Sequence record: NC_054922.1 | From: Escherichia phage vB_EcoM_KAW1E185 | Direction: 5' to 3' (one strand) | DNA: 64,000 bases | Shown here: in pieces, positions 21,025 through 36,303 of the stretch | Layout: every line of letters starts with the position of its first letter | Position numbering within the stretch: the stretch's first letter is position 1 | Made by a program: the position numbers and the translations under genes | Notes under the pieces: generated by a model | The model's database searches: none | The model's input: the letters and a program-made list of their open reading frames with translations, nothing else | What the model was told of the DNA's origin: nothing

Positions 21025-21387
21025 TTAAAAGAATTTAAATTTTTTCTTTGACCTTTTATTAAATGCATCTTGCAGTTGCATTGTAATACATTTTTCTACA
21101 TGAGGAGCTAACTCAGCTTTTCTTTCTTGGTCAAGAACAGCAAAGTCCATTACAACCTTTCCATCAACCCAATCCAGTTTAGTTACATACACTATATGTG
21201 TAGAACCATCTTCTAGTTTAATGACAATCTCCTGGATAACATTTTCCATAGCAGATTTAATTATCTTAAGAGACTCATTAAAAAGACGTTCTTTTCTTTC
21301 TTCTTCCCCCTCCGAAGAGGGGGATTCATCGATAATTTCTAGATCTAAATCTAAATCATCTTTATTCATTAAATTCTTCCATATCAC
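21025..21387 (-). CDS. 40: gene 40 protein (head assembly)
   Basis: 120 aa; position between uvsX and 41 as in T4. Confidence 0.5.
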   Translation of the reverse strand: MIWKNLMNKDDLDLDLEIIDESPSSEGEEERKERLFNESLKIIKSAMENVIQEIVIKLEDGSTHIVYVTKLDWVDGKVVMDFAVLDQERKAELAPHVEKCITMQLQDAFNKRSKKKFKFF

Positions 21388-22543
21388 TTAACTGCTCGAG
21401 GTCAGTTTCTAAATCAGCAGCTGATTTACTTTTACTTTCTGGAGATTTAAATTTTTCAACCTTTGAGTTAATCAATTCATCAACTTCAGCTTCAACAATT
21501 TCATTGCTATCAATAGCACCTAACTGATAAGCACGTTTAATAGCATCTCGGAATGGTTGATGCTTAAATAAAGGACCCCAGAATGTAGTGCAGTTGGTAT
21601 CTTTTGCACGCCAAGATTTTTCTTCGCGAATCATCTCACCGGTTTCTTCATCAAGAAATTCACGGGCATACCAGCCATTTTTAGGTTTTACTACAAATCC
21701 TAATTCTAGAGCCATATCTAACAATCCAGAATAAGGATCGATACCACCGTCAAATTTAACATCAATAAAGAATTTACTTTTTTCTTTAACGGTACGAGAT
21801 TTTTCTACATTTAGAACAAATTGATACCCCTGAAGATCAGAACCATCTTTAATCTGGCGTTTACCGATAATGAATACGGTATCAGCCGAATACATTACGC
21901 CTGTACCACCTGTCATCACGGTTTTACTAAACATTTCAATTGTTTCAATTGTATGGTTAACCGCAACGCACGGAATATTTTTAATGCTAAAATAAGGAGT
22001 AACAATACGGAATAATGACTTCAGTGATTTAGCACGAGTCATATCTGCCACAGATTTTTCATTCAAGGCATCTTCCGTTTCTTTCTTAGAAGCCATATTA
22101 CCAATTGAGTCGATGAATACAATAACCTTTTCACCACGCTCAATAGCTTCAAGCTGGTTCACCATATCAATTTTCAGCTGTTCAACTGACTGGATTGGCG
22201 TATGAATTACACGTTCCGGGTCAACTCCCATGGATCGCAAATAAGCTGGAGTAATACCAAATTCGCTATCATAGAATAGACAAACCGCGTCAGGATATTT
22301 GTTCAAATATGCCGCAACCATAGTCAAAGACATATTTGATTTAAAGTGTTTAGAAGGCCCTGCGAAAATAGTTAAACCAGACTGCATACCACCATCAATC
22401 GCGCCAGAAATAGCAATATTAAGCATTGGGATTTTTGTACGGATTACATCCTTTTCATTAAAGAATTTAGATGTAGTCAGTTCAGCAGTCATTTTAGAAG
22501 TGGAAGCTTTAATCAAACGGGATTTTAAATCTGCAATAGACAT
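21362..22543 (-). CDS. uvsX: UvsX recombinase (RecA-like)
   Basis: 393 aa; Walker A GPSKHFKS; acidic C-terminus; T4 UvsX is about 391 aa. Confidence 0.9.
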   Translation of the reverse strand: MSIADLKSRLIKASTSKMTAELTTSKFFNEKDVIRTKIPMLNIAISGAIDGGMQSGLTIFAGPSKHFKSNMSLTMVAAYLNKYPDAVCLFYDSEFGITPAYLRSMGVDPERVIHTPIQSVEQLKIDMVNQLEAIERGEKVIVFIDSIGNMASKKETEDALNEKSVADMTRAKSLKSLFRIVTPYFSIKNIPCVAVNHTIETIEMFSKTVMTGGTGVMYSADTVFIIGKRQIKDGSDLQGYQFVLNVEKSRTVKEKSKFFIDVKFDGGIDPYSGLLDMALELGFVVKPKNGWYAREFLDEETGEMIREEKSWRAKDTNCTTFWGPLFKHQPFRDAIKRAYQLGAIDSNEIVEAEVDELINSKVEKFKSPESKSKSAADLETDLEQLSDMEEFNE

Positions 22544-22620
22544 TCATTTTTTCCATAGGCATCATTATATTTTCCTCACTGGTTAAAGATAGAGTAATTA
22601 TAACACAATAAATTTAGGCA

Positions 22621-23469
22621 TTAATCAACTGCTATTGGATGAATAGCATTAAACTTATGAAATGCTTCTGATTTTTCTTTACGCGAAACACACATGCGAA
22701 GAACCTTTAGTGGTTCATCTTCTTCACCCAACGATTTTCGTTTTTCAATATTAGAAGTTTTCCAACGAGCTTGCTCTGGAAACTCTCTATTGATTTGCTC
22801 AAGCGCTCTATTATGTTTAGAATTACTGCGAATTGAACTACACCCACCAGGAGCTTGTGCTTTTCCAGATACAACCAGATATTTGAACAAGGCCAAATGC
22901 GGATAACCTTGATTAATTAAATTGAGAAATGCATACATATCTTCGCACAAATCAATTTTTCCATACCCAATTTGTTCTGTTGTAAGTTTTCCAAGGTCAT
23001 ACCATGTATTCGTGAATCCATATGAATTTTCACGATAATTACCCCAAGATGAAGTAATTTTAAAAATAGGTAGACGAGCATGACCATGATAATACCCACA
23101 ATCCATGGCATCCTCAACATATTGAATCAATTCATAGAACTGTTCACGAGTCAATTGATTGACTTTATCTACGCAACGACGATCATCTCTTTTTCGCATT
23201 GAACTCATACGAATAGTAGTATCATCGTCAATCATCCAGATTCGTTGACCTGCATACATATCAGTAATTGCTTTACGAGTACCGGCAATTCCGTTTACAT
23301 CATCAGGAATAGTTATAATTTTAGCTCTAGACCCATAGGCGTCATAATAAGCTTTTTCTTCATGTTCACGTACTACGATATGAGGTTCATAATCAGTCGG
23401 AAACATATCAAGGGCAGAAACTGCCCCTACACGTTGATAGCTCGGAATTACGAATTGAATCATTTCCAC
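22621..23469 (-). CDS. glycosyltransferase at the beta-gt locus; candidate beta-glucosyl-HMC alpha-glucosyltransferase as in T2/T6
   Basis: 282 aa (T4 beta-gt is 351 aa); DxD-like IWMIDDDTT; sits between uvsX and gene 42. Confidence 0.45.
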   Translation of the reverse strand: MEMIQFVIPSYQRVGAVSALDMFPTDYEPHIVVREHEEKAYYDAYGSRAKIITIPDDVNGIAGTRKAITDMYAGQRIWMIDDDTTIRMSSMRKRDDRRCVDKVNQLTREQFYELIQYVEDAMDCGYYHGHARLPIFKITSSWGNYRENSYGFTNTWYDLGKLTTEQIGYGKIDLCEDMYAFLNLINQGYPHLALFKYLVVSGKAQAPGGCSSIRSNSKHNRALEQINREFPEQARWKTSNIEKRKSLGEEDEPLKVLRMCVSRKEKSEAFHKFNAIHPIAVD

Positions 23470-24200
23470 TCACCGTTATAATCTTTTTTCACAATATGAG
23501 TTTCGCCAGTATTCCACCAATGATCAACCAAGTAAAAATGACGAGAATATACATGAAGACTTCCAACATTCCATATAATAGAACCTGCTTTATACTGACG
23601 AGTTGAATCGCCTGCATTCAAATCAGATACTAATTTATCTAATACGTATTTTTGCCATGCATAATCATTACGGAATCCGAAGACCACGTCATTTGAGCGC
23701 ATGCTTACTACTGCATTGACTTTCTTGTCACGAATCAGATACTGTACGGTATTCGTACACATGAAATCTGACATACCATCTTTATTATAGTCAAACTGCA
23801 TAGATGGACGAGTATAAATCATGATACCACGTCGAGAATCAGGATTTTGACCAAGTTCAGCTAAACACATATCATACTGGGCATAGTTATCTTCTGACCA
23901 AATAGCCCAACCATAATTCGAGTTAATTTCGCCTTTAGAAGATGCTACCTGCTGCCAAATCTTTGGTGTTTCACCTGGAATATCTTTAACAAACAAGCTT
24001 TTAGATTTATACCATTCAAGTTCACGCTGAATGTATTCATCATTAAGAGCGCCAAAAATAAACGGTTCATCTGCTACAAATGATGCGCCAATAATTTCAA
24101 TAGTTTTAACACCAGTTTTATCAACTACGAAATCTTTTTCCTTTAATGCAAGCCCCAAATGAAGACGGATTTCTTCAACTGTCATAGAGTCACTAATCAT
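23460..24200 (-). CDS. 42: dCMP hydroxymethylase (gene 42)
   Basis: 246 aa as in T4 gp42; thymidylate-synthase-like fold motifs. Confidence 0.9.
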   Translation of the reverse strand: MISDSMTVEEIRLHLGLALKEKDFVVDKTGVKTIEIIGASFVADEPFIFGALNDEYIQRELEWYKSKSLFVKDIPGETPKIWQQVASSKGEINSNYGWAIWSEDNYAQYDMCLAELGQNPDSRRGIMIYTRPSMQFDYNKDGMSDFMCTNTVQYLIRDKKVNAVVSMRSNDVVFGFRNDYAWQKYVLDKLVSDLNAGDSTRQYKAGSIIWNVGSLHVYSRHFYLVDHWWNTGETHIVKKDYNGEWK

Positions 24201-24207
24201 TTAAACC

Positions 24208-24357
24208 TCAATTGATGCATTCATATTTAAATTGTAACAGTAATAAGCTCCAACTTAAAATAATAGTTGGAATCATAAGAGGAACCGTTACACTATAGTA
24301 TATACTTATTATAATCATCAAGATTAAAAGCAACACTGCTATAATTTTGCTTTTCAT
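24208..24357 (-). CDS. hydrophobic peptide (49 aa), ATGA-coupled to imm; below ORF-track cut-off
   Basis: own translation MKSKIIAVLLLILMIIISIYYSVTVPLMIPTIILSWSLLLLQFKYECIN. Confidence 0.35.
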   Translation of the reverse strand: MKSKIIAVLLLILMIIISIYYSVTVPLMIPTIILSWSLLLLQFKYECIN

Positions 24358-24605
24358 TCCTTCTCTCTGATGATAATTACCTGATTTGGTTGTGCAGACT
24401 TTTTGGTTTCACCCGCAATTGACCAAATAAATGTAATAAACCAACCAATAATTGACCAGTTAAACAGTAAAGATGTGAAAAAGATTCCTACTGTCGATTT
24501 TGACCCACGCATCAAGGCGATGAACCATGGAAGCATGTATATAATAATAGCCAACACACCTGAAACTAAAACCATAAAAATTGAACCTGCTACTAAAGTT
24601 TCCAT
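24354..24605 (-). CDS. imm: Imm superinfection immunity membrane protein
   Basis: 83 aa, two transmembrane segments; same length and position as T4 Imm. Confidence 0.7.
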   Translation of the reverse strand: METLVAGSIFMVLVSGVLAIIIYMLPWFIALMRGSKSTVGIFFTSLLFNWSIIGWFITFIWSIAGETKKSAQPNQVIIIREKE

Positions 24606-24612
24606 CTTTTCC

Positions 24613-24993
24613 TCACTTAGTCAAATTTTTTACGCATGAATTATAAGAATTCACTACATACTCCATCGGAGCATTTTTACCTGTGCGCCATTGGTAATTA
24701 TTAGCCCAATTTGTCCAAATTTCGGCGCAGTAGTTTTCAATTTTTTCTTCGCGTGTAATTACATCAGAATTACGATATGCTTGAGCAGATTCATCTGGAC
24801 GAATAGCTTCGTCAAAATTCGCCTGCATTTGTTCTACTGTCTGTTTTGGAGCTTCTTTATAACACTTGACATTAGGATTATAAAACTTGCTTGAACAGTT
24901 TACAATTTTTCCTGCATCAGACTGATTTACTACCGGTCCTTGAGCTACACAACCAGTAAGACCTAATGCAATAACCAAAATAGCGATTTTCAT
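24613..24993 (-). CDS. predicted lipoprotein (126 aa)
   Basis: signal peptide with LGLTGC lipobox. Confidence 0.45.
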   Translation of the reverse strand: MKIAILVIALGLTGCVAQGPVVNQSDAGKIVNCSSKFYNPNVKCYKEAPKQTVEQMQANFDEAIRPDESAQAYRNSDVITREEKIENYCAEIWTNWANNYQWRTGKNAPMEYVVNSYNSCVKNLTK

Positions 24994-25003
24994 AATAATT
25001 TCC

Positions 25004-25252
25004 TCAAATGCAAGTAGTAATTACTCCAGTAGTGCTTATGCAGGTATTACCCATTTGCACACCTAAAGATCCATTTGTATTCACATGAAGATTATCATCA
25101 ATTTTAACTGATATTTTACCATTAGTGTGAATAACGGTGCTAGATTCAATCACAGGTTGAGTATCATTTTCAACACTAACAAATGGAACTGCTGCTAATG
25201 CAACTAAACAAACTGCTAAGCATCCCATAACAATTTTCATTTTATTCTCCAA
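25004..25252 (-). CDS. secreted small protein (82 aa)
   Basis: N-terminal signal peptide. Confidence 0.4.
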   Translation of the reverse strand: MENKMKIVMGCLAVCLVALAAVPFVSVENDTQPVIESSTVIHTNGKISVKIDDNLHVNTNGSLGVQMGNTCISTTGVITTCI

Positions 25253-25277
25253 ATCTGTATCAGTAGTTGATAGTTGT

Positions 25278-25307
25278 ATAGTACCATGGAAGAACAGTCT
25301 TGTAAAC
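25278..25307 (-). promoter_or_regulatory. T4-type early promoter
   Basis: gtaaac 25302-25307; -10 TACTAT; 18-bp spacer. Confidence 0.5.
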
Positions 25308-25393
25308 AGTTTTGTGAAAATTTTTTAGGGAATTCTAAATGTCCAGAATCATCTGTTTTTCATAAGTATAGATTTATATTACTTGTATGAAAA

Positions 25394-25411
25394 AGGGACC
25401 CGGAGGTCCCT
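25394..25411 (-). terminator. rho-independent terminator-like hairpin downstream of gene 43
   Basis: agggacc cgga ggtccct, perfect 7-bp stem, followed by a U-run in minus-strand RNA. Confidence 0.6.
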
Positions 25412-25423
25412 AGATTTATTTTA

Positions 25424-28120
25424 TCAGCCAAACAGGAAGTCTAACGAAGCTTTTTCTTCATAGTCCATACCAGCCGATTCACACATGCCTGCAAGCGGTT
25501 TAACAAACGATTTTTGGAACAAAGTTGAGTAGTCAATCCAAGACAGTACGTCAGAACGAATTTCTTTTGGAAGTTCTGTACCCGACGGCCAAGCAATGCA
25601 TTTGTCACCAAATGGATTTCCTTCACGCAATGGAAGAACCATTACTTTATTTCCATCCAAAATTGGAGCTACACCTAAACCGCTAACAGCTCGACGATAA
25701 GTTAGCACACCACGAATATGGAACGGACATTTAAATCCTGGCCAACCTTTATCATCATATTTCGCTATATCGTTCGCAGTTTTTACTTCAGCAATAACTT
25801 TATAGTCAAGTTGACGATATTCTTTCTCGAAGTTCTTGTAATATTCTTGGACAGACTCTTCACCTTCCTGAAGAATACGACGAATACTTTCTTCGAGAGC
25901 TTCTTGGACCGCTTTAGGCGTTGAACTCTGCTGAGTTTCCATACCCATGATTTTTAGATGCGGTTCAGCAAATCGCTTATCTTCCATATCATATACGTTC
26001 AGAGCATAACGCTTTTTCGCTTTCCAAAATCCACCAACGCCCTTTGAACCAAGTGGAGGGCAAGAAATAGCTTCACGGTCCATATGCATCAGATGCTCGC
26101 GGTTATTCATATAATCACATAACTCACGATATGCAACATCAATCATAGGTTCCATCTTTTTCTTACCGAACTGATTCATGAATTCAACTAAATCGTTCTG
26201 CTCTTTGAATCGGTCAAGACCAACTTTTTCAATAACTTTATCTACACAAACATATACCGAATCAGTATCACCTGCTGCGATGAAATCTTCGCCATTAGTT
26301 CCACATACTTTATTCAGATACTCATTAATTTTACGAGCAATCCACTGAATACCGACTTGACCAAAAATTGTAATAGCAGTAGCATTTCGCAAATCATAGT
26401 AGCGGAAATGAATATTACCAAGAGCACCGTAAAGGCTGTTAATAAGAATTTTACGGTTCAGCTGATTTGTATTAGCAAGTGTAGCCGCTTTTTCACATTC
26501 TTCAATCAAACTATTGAGAACAGATTCAGTATAATTCGATAGTTCATTTAAGAAATCATCACTGAACTTAACATATCGTTCAACTTCCGGTTTAGTTGAA
26601 CAAGACCCTGCGCCTTTCATAATAATCTTTTTAATAGCTTCGGCATTCATTTCTTCAGCGAACATTTTCTTTTTCCAATCTTTACGCTGGAAAAATACTT
26701 TAGCGATTTCCTTTGGAATGATACCTTCTTGATGCTTATCATACATCCATCCGTTCGGAGAACAAGAATATTCATCACTCGGTTTAGGAGCTGTTCCTGC
26801 GATATATTCATGAATTGGATGAACTTTAAACTGACCACGAATAGTCTCAGGACTAATGTTAACCTGACGAATAATGCTCGGATACAGAGACGTCAAGTCA
26901 AAACTCATAATATATCGACGAGCAATTGGTTTAGGTTCAAATACAAATGCACCCGGAAAACTTTGTTTAACGTGCGAACCTTGTTGAGGAATAACCTTGT
27001 GTTCACCTTTCAATGAGTTAAAAATAATAGCATCCCAAGTTTTAATAGGACTCATTACACCAGAAAAAGGCATTTTAGCGTAATAAGACATACTTAAAAC
27101 TAGATCGATAAACCCGCGAATTTTATCAATTGCTTGAACTGATTCTACGTCAATGATGTTATAACTAATGTATCGTTGATGATTAGTCTCACGAAGTTTA
27201 TTAATAGGACCGTCGTATGGTAATTTACCTTTTTTGGTTTCATGTTGAGCAACTGATTCCAAAGAGAATGACGGCAAATTAGTAAAAGCAAATTTCTTGT
27301 ACAAATCTAAATAATCAAGAATAGATACACCATCAATAGAATAAATTTCTTTGCTGCCGTACATATTTTGAATTAGTTTAGATTTTACTCGACCGATTGG
27401 AGAGAAGCGTTTCATACTACGTTCACCGAGAACCATTTTAACGCGATTCATGATATACGGAACGTCAAATCCCTCAATATTCCAACCAGTAAAAATAGCA
27501 GGTCGTTTCTGTTCCCAGAGATTGATATATTCCATGAGCATATCACGCTCATTATCGAATGGCATATAAATTACTCGGTCAAGAATTTCTTGAGGAACTT
27601 CATCACCACCTTCACAGTCAAGCTTAGCAGCTAACTTTGCATCCCATTTTGATACTGAACCATACATTGAATTCAAAAGGTCGAAAACATAAAAACGATC
27701 ATCAATTGAATCGTAATGAGTGATAGCATCAATTTCATATTCAGCTTTCATTGGGTCAGGAAATTTATCACCAGTAACCTCAATGTCACAGTTAGCTACA
27801 CGAACAAATTTTCGGTCATAAACAATTTCTGAACCGTATGTATCACTGATATAAGCGAGTTTAAAATCGTTCATACCGAGAGCTTCGAGACCGATGTCTT
27901 CCATTCGTTTCATCCAATCTCGAGCATCTTTCATTGATGGAAATTTTTGAGGAGCGCAGTTTTTACCATAGATGTCTTTGTACTTTGACTCTTCCTTACA
28001 ATGCCTAAACATAGTTGGAAGATATTCTACTTCACGAGTACGTTCCTTTCCATTTTCATCAATATAACGTTCAACAATATTATTTCCGACTGTTTCAATA
28101 GAGATATAAAATTCTTTCAT
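25424..28120 (-). CDS. 43: DNA polymerase (gene 43, family B)
   Basis: 898 aa as in T4 gp43; exonuclease and polymerase motifs (YGDTDS-like GDTDSVY). Confidence 0.95.
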   Translation of the reverse strand: MKEFYISIETVGNNIVERYIDENGKERTREVEYLPTMFRHCKEESKYKDIYGKNCAPQKFPSMKDARDWMKRMEDIGLEALGMNDFKLAYISDTYGSEIVYDRKFVRVANCDIEVTGDKFPDPMKAEYEIDAITHYDSIDDRFYVFDLLNSMYGSVSKWDAKLAAKLDCEGGDEVPQEILDRVIYMPFDNERDMLMEYINLWEQKRPAIFTGWNIEGFDVPYIMNRVKMVLGERSMKRFSPIGRVKSKLIQNMYGSKEIYSIDGVSILDYLDLYKKFAFTNLPSFSLESVAQHETKKGKLPYDGPINKLRETNHQRYISYNIIDVESVQAIDKIRGFIDLVLSMSYYAKMPFSGVMSPIKTWDAIIFNSLKGEHKVIPQQGSHVKQSFPGAFVFEPKPIARRYIMSFDLTSLYPSIIRQVNISPETIRGQFKVHPIHEYIAGTAPKPSDEYSCSPNGWMYDKHQEGIIPKEIAKVFFQRKDWKKKMFAEEMNAEAIKKIIMKGAGSCSTKPEVERYVKFSDDFLNELSNYTESVLNSLIEECEKAATLANTNQLNRKILINSLYGALGNIHFRYYDLRNATAITIFGQVGIQWIARKINEYLNKVCGTNGEDFIAAGDTDSVYVCVDKVIEKVGLDRFKEQNDLVEFMNQFGKKKMEPMIDVAYRELCDYMNNREHLMHMDREAISCPPLGSKGVGGFWKAKKRYALNVYDMEDKRFAEPHLKIMGMETQQSSTPKAVQEALEESIRRILQEGEESVQEYYKNFEKEYRQLDYKVIAEVKTANDIAKYDDKGWPGFKCPFHIRGVLTYRRAVSGLGVAPILDGNKVMVLPLREGNPFGDKCIAWPSGTELPKEIRSDVLSWIDYSTLFQKSFVKPLAGMCESAGMDYEEKASLDFLFG

Positions 28121-35084: not shown

Positions 35085-35102
35085 AAAGGGCCGAAGCCCT
35101 TT
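35085..35102 (-). terminator. stem-loop overlapping the agt stop codon
   Basis: aaagggc cgaa gcccttt. Confidence 0.5.
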
Positions 35103-36303
35103 ATTTTGTAATAATGTCAAACTGTTCTTTAAAGCAGAAGCTTGAATCTTGATGCTGATACAAAAATTCATATGCTTTTTCACGCTCACGGTCATAAAGA
35201 GCTCGGTCAGATGACAGTTCTTTAATACGTTCAAATGTTGATTCCATATCATTTTCATCAAACCAAATGATACCGCTATCATGCGAGGTCAAAGGAGTAT
35301 TATCAACACGGAATTTTAAATTTTCGCCAGTAGATTTCCAAAATACCGGAATTGTTCCACATGCACCAAGCTCGAGATGAGTATATTCTAAAGAGCGCTG
35401 TAGATATTTTTTATCCAACTTACTCAACTGATAACCAAATCCGGATTTACTCATACGTTCAAGCATTTCGTTATTTACATAACGATCGAGAATTTGCGTT
35501 GGTAAATTAGGAGCAATTTTAATTTGGTCTACTTGATGAAGACGATAATACTCGTATGGAATTCCTTTTTCTTTAATAGGAATGAACGCTGGAGAACGTT
35601 CCAGACCTTCCATAATAGTACTTAGTCCTGCAGGTTTAAGATGTTTTTCATGAAAATCAAACATCTGATAAAAACCTTTCCATGTAGTCGTACGACCAAT
35701 CCAACGGTTGATATTCATGTTAATTTCAGAAACATCTTTCCAGTAGGTTGACCGAACCTTCGCAATATCCATAGGAGGCTGAAAGTTATATACTGTCGGT
35801 GCTTCTTCAATATCATCAAACAGAGAAACTGTTTCAGGATACCATTCTTTCATCAGAACTTTATTAAAATCACCATTATCAGAATGGCTAAAAATAACAT
35901 CAGCTCGACGAACAGTTTCTTCTAATCCCAAATTTCGGCGCAAAGAAAGAGAAGAATGGTCATGTTGATAAACTACAACACGAACAGAAGGTTTAATGTT
36001 ATCAATAATTTTTTTATAGTTATTAATAGTGTCTTCTTCAACCGAAGTAGCAGGAACTGAATTGATAATTAGAATATCACAATCATTTACCAGCTTAAGT
36101 GTTTTATCGTATTCTTTTGCCAATAAAACCGGAATTGAAAATGATTTATAATCATGTGCACAGTTACGAGTAAATGATTTATCTTTAGCATAAACCAAAG
36201 TTACTTCATGACCATTTTTAATAAACCAATCACGTTGCTCGAGCGAGAATTTTGTTACACCACAACCTTCAAGACCTCGAGCCATAAAAATACATACTTT
36301 CAT
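35101..36303 (-). CDS. agt: alpha-glucosyltransferase
   Basis: 400 aa as in T4 alpha-gt. Confidence 0.85.
   Translation of the reverse strand: MKVCIFMARGLEGCGVTKFSLEQRDWFIKNGHEVTLVYAKDKSFTRNCAHDYKSFSIPVLLAKEYDKTLKLVNDCDILIINSVPATSVEEDTINNYKKIIDNIKPSVRVVVYQHDHSSLSLRRNLGLEETVRRADVIFSHSDNGDFNKVLMKEWYPETVSLFDDIEEAPTVYNFQPPMDIAKVRSTYWKDVSEINMNINRWIGRTTTWKGFYQMFDFHEKHLKPAGLSTIMEGLERSPAFIPIKEKGIPYEYYRLHQVDQIKIAPNLPTQILDRYVNNEMLERMSKSGFGYQLSKLDKKYLQRSLEYTHLELGACGTIPVFWKSTGENLKFRVDNTPLTSHDSGIIWFDENDMESTFERIKELSSDRALYDREREKAYEFLYQHQDSSFCFKEQFDIITK

Follow-up and report, generated by a model that had tools for sequence, protein, structure and literature searches.

A gene very probably encoding a T2/T6-type beta-glucosyl-HMC-alpha-glucosyltransferase between uvsX and gene 42 of Escherichia phage vB_EcoM_KAW1E185

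Introduction

Gentiobiosyl-hmC has long been known from the DNA of the classical phages T2 and T6, at 5% in T2 and 72% in T6. The T2/T6 enzyme links a second glucose beta-1,6 to alpha-glucosyl-hmC and thus yields gentiobiosyl-hmC (PMC6024577; PMC13216743; bioRxiv 10.64898/2026.02.25.707755). The position of this enzyme, also called TAGT (TET-associated glycosyltransferase), is stated explicitly to be syntenic with that of T4 beta-GT (PMC13390438). An alpha-GT or a beta-GT accompanied by a TAGT is the usual arrangement, and the alpha plus beta pair of T4 is a rarity (PMC13216743, 2026 NAR). [quoted passage not shown]

The nucleosides that result have been measured by HPLC/MS in a study of the Durham Collection, which includes EH2 and Solly. 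These two and five further Tequatrovirus phages contain about one third 5-hmdC and about two thirds alpha-gentiobiosyl-mdC, with the mono-glucosyl form at background (PMC13390438), and in the Durham phages Geo, EL and BGP hmC, mono-glucosyl and gentiobiosyl forms stand at about 1:2:2 (PMC13390438). The second glucose matters to host defence. A T6 strain deleted for ba-gt carries alpha-glucosyl-hmC only, shows heightened sensitivity to the Brig1 glycosylase and has DNA that Brig1 can degrade in vitro (PMC11078745). BapA frees glucose from the DNA of T6 delta-g-gt and frees none from that of wild-type T6 (bioRxiv 10.64898/2026.02.25.707755). Gentiobiosylated DNA is still cut by GmrSD and BrxU (PMC13216743; PMC13390438).

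Here we analyse a stretch of 64,000 nucleotides of Escherichia phage vB_EcoM_KAW1E185 (NC_054922.1), which we call the window, and in particular the gene between uvsX and gene 42. An original prediction, made from the letters of the sequence, had proposed that this gene encodes a glycosyltransferase of T2/T6 type in the place of T4 beta-gt.

Results

The locus and its comparison with T4

The features on which the comparison rests are as follows (window coordinates).

21362..22543: uvsX, flanking ba-gt
22532..23477, no strand assigned: cassette without DNA similarity to T4 (blastn against the T4 locus; T4 annotation)
22621..23469, minus strand: ba-gt ORF as listed, 282 aa from GTG at 23469 (ORF list)
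22621..23463, minus strand: ba-gt (ggt/TAGT) CDS, 280 aa, from ATG 23463 to TAA 22621..22623
23460..24200, minus strand: gene 42, dCMP hydroxymethylase (hmC precursor), from the ORF, 96% DNA identity to the T4 gene 42 region and the annotations of matching records
35101..36303, minus strand: alpha-gt, DNA alpha-glucosyltransferase, 400 aa, Pfam PF11440 AGT

Compared by blastn, homology to T4 ends at position 22531 and restarts at 23478, leaving a 946-bp cassette that stands in for T4 23556..25496, a 1.9-kb segment holding segA and b-gt. On either side of the cassette, uvsX and gene 42 share 90-96% identity with their T4 counterparts, and the order uvsX/ba-gt/gene 42 is the same in T2, T6, EH2 and Geo. 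GC content across the region is even, at 0.33-0.38.

The original prediction held that T4 keeps its 351-aa b-gt at this locus and that the window phage has something else there, and on both counts we agree: T4 has both b-gt and segA in the syntenic slot, and strong homology to T4 b-gt was looked for in three ways and not found. BLASTP of T4 b-gt against the ba-gt ORF detects no similarity (the best alignment spans 8 residues, with E=5.8), tblastn finds no T4 b-gt homolog anywhere within the 64-kb window, and Pfam PF09198, the family of T4 b-gt, has no match to the window ba-gt at E<=1. What does not stand is the impression that a different glycosyltransferase at the beta-gt locus is unusual, for this is the usual arrangement in Tequatrovirus. 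The two genes have a good deal in common, namely the slot beside gene 42, a UDP-glucose donor, a beta bond and an hmC-DNA substrate. They differ in length (351 aa in T4, 280 aa in the window), in sequence, which is dissimilar, in fold (GT-B in T4, GT-A as predicted for the window protein) and in acceptor, which is the hydroxymethyl of bare hmC for T4 b-gt and would be the 6-OH of alpha-glucosyl-hmC for the window enzyme.

The partner gene needed for that acceptor is present. The alpha-gt at 35101..36303, claimed to be intact, is indeed so: its 400-aa product matches the full Pfam PF11440 AGT model (785 bits, E=8e-237, model positions 1-355 of 355) and is 99.5% identical to that of EH2 and 99.8% identical to that of Solly.

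Start codon and extent of the gene

The ORF as listed begins at a GTG (23469), but the DNA offers a better start two codons 3' of it. ATG 23463 lies 6 nt after GGTGA and overlaps the stop codon of gene 42 as ATGA, and the equivalent start is the one annotated in T2, EH2 and Geo, where the gene is 843 nt long and encodes 280 aa. Because of this RBS spacing, the ATGA overlap and the annotation in the three related phages, we prefer ATG 23463 and have dropped GTG 23469, before which there is no RBS spacing; the most likely extent of ba-gt is thus 22621..23463, 280 aa. Of the 282-aa DDD protein first described between uvsX and gene 42, the ORF, its site and its DDD motif are retained and the length is corrected. 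The ATGA overlap also suggests that gene 42 and ba-gt are co-transcribed and translationally coupled.

Relatives of the window protein

Two independent family models recognise the protein. PHROG 842, named 'beta-glucosyl-HMC-alpha-glucosyltransferase', matches it with E=2e-89 over positions 3-269 of 270, and Pfam PF20691 (TET-associated glycosyltransferase, TAGT) matches with 38.9 bits (cutoff 27.5) over model positions 2-205 of 205. Every feature of PF20691 membership that can be tested is found in the window gene. At the level of individual proteins, it is identical to that of T2 (AP018813) at 278 of 280 residues (99.3%), to that of T6 (MH550421) at 276 of 280 (98.6%) and to that of vB_Eco_EH2 throughout (100%). 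Together, these matches bear out the T2/T6-type assignment of the original prediction.

The likeness to each of these relatives goes beyond sequence identity. T2 ba-gt has the same length (280 aa), locus, DDD motif and alpha-gt partner as the window gene, and differs from it at two residues, R11 (H in T2) and P251 (S in T2). T6 ba-gt likewise shares length, locus, DDD motif and alpha-gt partner and differs by three substitutions, at window residues Y40, D55 and R106; the lesions found in both deposited T6 ba-gt sequences (see below) are absent from the window gene. The EH2 gene, from the Durham Collection and annotated 'glucosyl transferase', encodes a protein with no differences at all, in a 3-kb region whose DNA is 99.0% identical to the window.

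The gene is also widespread. A tblastn search of 50,697 phage records finds a homolog in 687, of which 470 are at 95% identity or more; the carriers are mostly Tequatrovirus phages of Escherichia, Shigella, Yersinia and Salmonella, many of whose annotations say ba-gt, and several independent isolates encode a protein 100% identical to that of the window. The window as a whole is that of an ordinary Tequatrovirus, with 97.4-98.1% identity over 25 kb to the dozen best matches listed, and at least 80% of this 25-kb stretch is covered in 480 records.

We therefore regard it as very probable that the gene encodes the T2/T6-type beta-glucosyl-HMC-alpha-glucosyltransferase (ba-gt/ggt/TAGT), the enzyme that adds the second glucose after alpha-gt. 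Nothing was found against this identification. The gene is already known, being the same gene as T2/T6 ba-gt, and it brings no new biology, since alpha-gt plus TAGT is the commonest arrangement in the genus (PMC13216743). For the window phage, the practical value lies in a correct annotation and in a predicted T6-like modification pattern.

Predicted fold and conserved residues

No solved relative of the window protein turned up when the PDB was searched by sequence (best E=1.6, to an unrelated protein), and the fold was taken from an AlphaFold2 prediction (pLDDT 94.9). The model consists of one GT-A domain, and its top structural matches are all GT-A enzymes or nucleotidyltransferases; the two-domain GT-B fold of T4 type, which the published structures of T4 alpha- and beta-GT have, is not what the model shows. 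Among the bacterial inverting GT-A enzymes of GT2 (TarS, TarP, K4CP, SpsA), identity to the window protein is only 8-16%. The acceptors of that group are teichoic acid or polysaccharide, whereas that of the window enzyme would be a sugar on DNA, and unlike that group the window protein has neither a membrane nor an oligomerisation domain.

Searching 1.84 billion cluster representatives yielded 336 relatives, and the family alignment was built from 85 members reaching down to about 20% identity. Only four columns are invariant in this 85-member alignment (R11, D80, D175 and G207), and the window protein has all four. It also has every one of the near-invariant residues, I6, P7, R63, I66, D79, D81, G186, G206, R212 and P229. 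Three sites deserve their coordinates.

23431..23433, minus strand: R11 codon (CGT), invariant (alignments; exact-word DNA counts)
23221..23229, minus strand: D79-D80-D81 codons, DXD motif, sequence gacgatgat
22939..22944, minus strand: E174-D175 codons (ED motif), D175 invariant in the alignment

Within the DXD motif, conservation in the same alignment is complete at D80 and at least 90% at D79 and at D81. As in GT-A enzymes generally, D79-D80-D81 would bind the metal and the diphosphate of the UDP-sugar, and by analogy with GT2 enzymes D175 would be the catalytic base of an inverting enzyme; R11 probably contacts the nucleotide. With UDP-alpha-glucose as donor and a beta linkage in the product, inversion of configuration is expected.

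Predicted glucosylation pattern

The proposed pathway has three steps. Gene 42 and the replication machinery would, as is established for such phages, put hmC into the phage DNA. The alpha-gt would then place an alpha-linked glucose on roughly three quarters of the hmC, an activity that we assign from its 99.5-99.8% identity to the enzymes of phages whose DNA has been measured. Finally, the 280-aa enzyme would use UDP-glucose to attach a second glucose, by a beta-1,6 bond, to the first, giving gentiobiosyl-hmC. Because the window phage shares its ba-gt protein with EH2 and has an alpha-gt this close to those of EH2 and Solly, we predict T6-like virion DNA with about two thirds gentiobiosyl-hmC, about one third bare hmC and little mono-alpha-glucosyl-hmC.

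The same enzyme could be weak, as it is in T2, leaving DNA that is mostly mono-alpha-glucosylated with a few percent gentiobiosyl-hmC. Since the enzymes of T2 and T6 share about 98% identity and are associated with gentiobiosyl-hmC at 5% versus 72%, sequence alone is insufficient to give the extent of diglucosylation. The T2 protein in particular is 99.3% identical to that of the window and goes with about 5% gentiobiosyl-hmC (PMC6024577; bioRxiv 10.64898/2026.02.25.707755), and near-identity is thus no guarantee of high diglucosylation. However, the R11H change of T2, at a residue invariant in 85 members, is absent from the window protein, and the two phages that share its ba-gt sequence (EH2) or nearly its alpha-gt (EH2 and Solly) both have about two thirds gentiobiosyl-hmC (PMC13390438). 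We consider a weak enzyme unlikely.

A second reading concerns the order of events rather than their extent: the gene could encode a primary glycosyltransferase that acts on bare hmC, a functional substitute for T4 beta-gt and not a second-step enzyme. It does occupy the b-gt locus, the Pfam name TAGT comes from an association with TET dioxygenases, which make 5hmC, and a TAGT homolog occurs without an alpha- or beta-GT in 288 of 753 phages (PMC13216743). But T2, T6 and the Durham carriers keep about 25-33% of their hmC unglucosylated and have no beta-glucosyl-hmC (PMC13390438), and the T6 deletion described above gives DNA with alpha-glucosyl-hmC alone (PMC11078745), so that a primary role is very improbable. 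That the gene is an inactivated remnant, or the ORF wrongly called, is more improbable still: lesions do exist in laboratory phages (an amber at codon 10 in T6 MH550421; DDD reduced to DD in T6 AP018814 and in HP3.2), but the window frame is full-length and keeps all invariant residues, the structure model is confident, and the identical protein recurs in several independent isolates.

Variation in ba-gt and alpha-gt

Searching with an exact 41-nt word, we find the R11 to H change (CAT codon) in 8 records only, 7 of T2 and one of SV76, which is of the same length as T2; the CGT form encoding R11, which is the window allele, occurs in at least 108 records by exact-word search. As R11H alters an invariant residue in a phage with only about 5% gentiobiosyl-hmC, it is a candidate hypomorphic change that may lie behind the difference in gentiobiosyl-hmC between T2 and T6.

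The deposited T6 sequences carry changes of their own. In MH550421, codon 10 is changed from CAG to TAG (amber), a change found in no other record, and the annotated gene starts at M20. In AP018814 (the same sequence as NC_054907), one GAT is lost from GAT-GAT-GAT, turning DDD into DD, and Escherichia phage HP3.2 has the same deletion. Because such lesions appear in the classical 72% gentiobiosyl phage, sequenced T6 stocks may differ from historical T6; the lesions may reflect drift of laboratory stocks or a hotspot of triplet-repeat slippage within the catalytic motif. A tentative and rather improbable idea is that natural and laboratory variation in ba-gt (R11H, GAT loss, amber 10) tunes the DNA, like a dial, between the mono- and the di-glucosylated state; were it true, the window allele would represent the fully 'on' state.

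The alpha-gt gene varies as well. In Tequatrovirus records it falls into two main allele groups: identity to the window is 99% or above in 388 records and 90-95% in 63, the latter including RB55, HY03 and EL; in 49 more it is 95-99%. Durham phages of the 90-95% alpha-gt group show hmC, mono-glucosyl and gentiobiosyl forms at 1:2:2 and not the mostly-gentiobiosyl pattern. Geo differs from the window by 7 substitutions in ba-gt and by 34 residues in alpha-gt, which is 91.5% identical (366/400).

Consequences for host defence

That glycosylation bears on sensitivity to host defences, as the original prediction also proposed, is documented in T6 for Brig1 (PMC11078745) and BapA (bioRxiv 10.64898/2026.02.25.707755). 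Judged by this work on T6, the second sugar in the window phage would mask alpha-glucosyl-hmC from Brig1 and BapA and would be no shield against GmrSD or BrxU. The significance of ba-gt is that it sets whether hmC carries one or two glucoses, with sensitivity to Brig1 and BapA/Brig3 changed and that to GmrSD and BrxU unchanged.

Neighbouring features

The homing endonuclease gene segA, which lies between b-gt and uvsX in T4, is absent from the window phage. A sigma-70 scan near ba-gt gave 17 sites against 10.4 +/- 3.7 expected, none of them convincing as a dedicated promoter; the scan covers sigma-70 promoters, and the middle and late promoters of T4 type fall outside its coverage. Two further features lie within ba-gt and beyond gene 42.

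23409..23429, minus strand: GC-rich hairpin (GGGGCAG-UUU-CUGCCCU) with a U-rich run after it, in ba-gt codons 12-18, flagged as terminator-like
24208..24357, minus strand: ORF of 49 aa, very hydrophobic (MKSKIIAVLLLILMIIISIYY...), between gene 42 and imm

We do not take the hairpin as a terminator, its folding being only marginally above that of shuffled sequences (91-nt region, z = -2.07; 6 of 200 shuffles fold equally well). Its sequence is identical in T2 and T6. The 49-aa ORF overlaps the stop codon of imm by 4 nt. A near-identical peptide is encoded in the same spacer of T4, where the RefSeq table has no CDS, and the annotations of EH2 and Geo call it 'Phage protein'. Finally, the 77-nt spacer between ba-gt and uvsX (22544..22620, minus strand) contains TGCCTAA, followed after about 12 nt by TGTTATAAT; this pair resembles the MotA box and extended -10 of a T4 MotA-dependent middle promoter, and we take it to be a putative promoter of this kind for uvsX.
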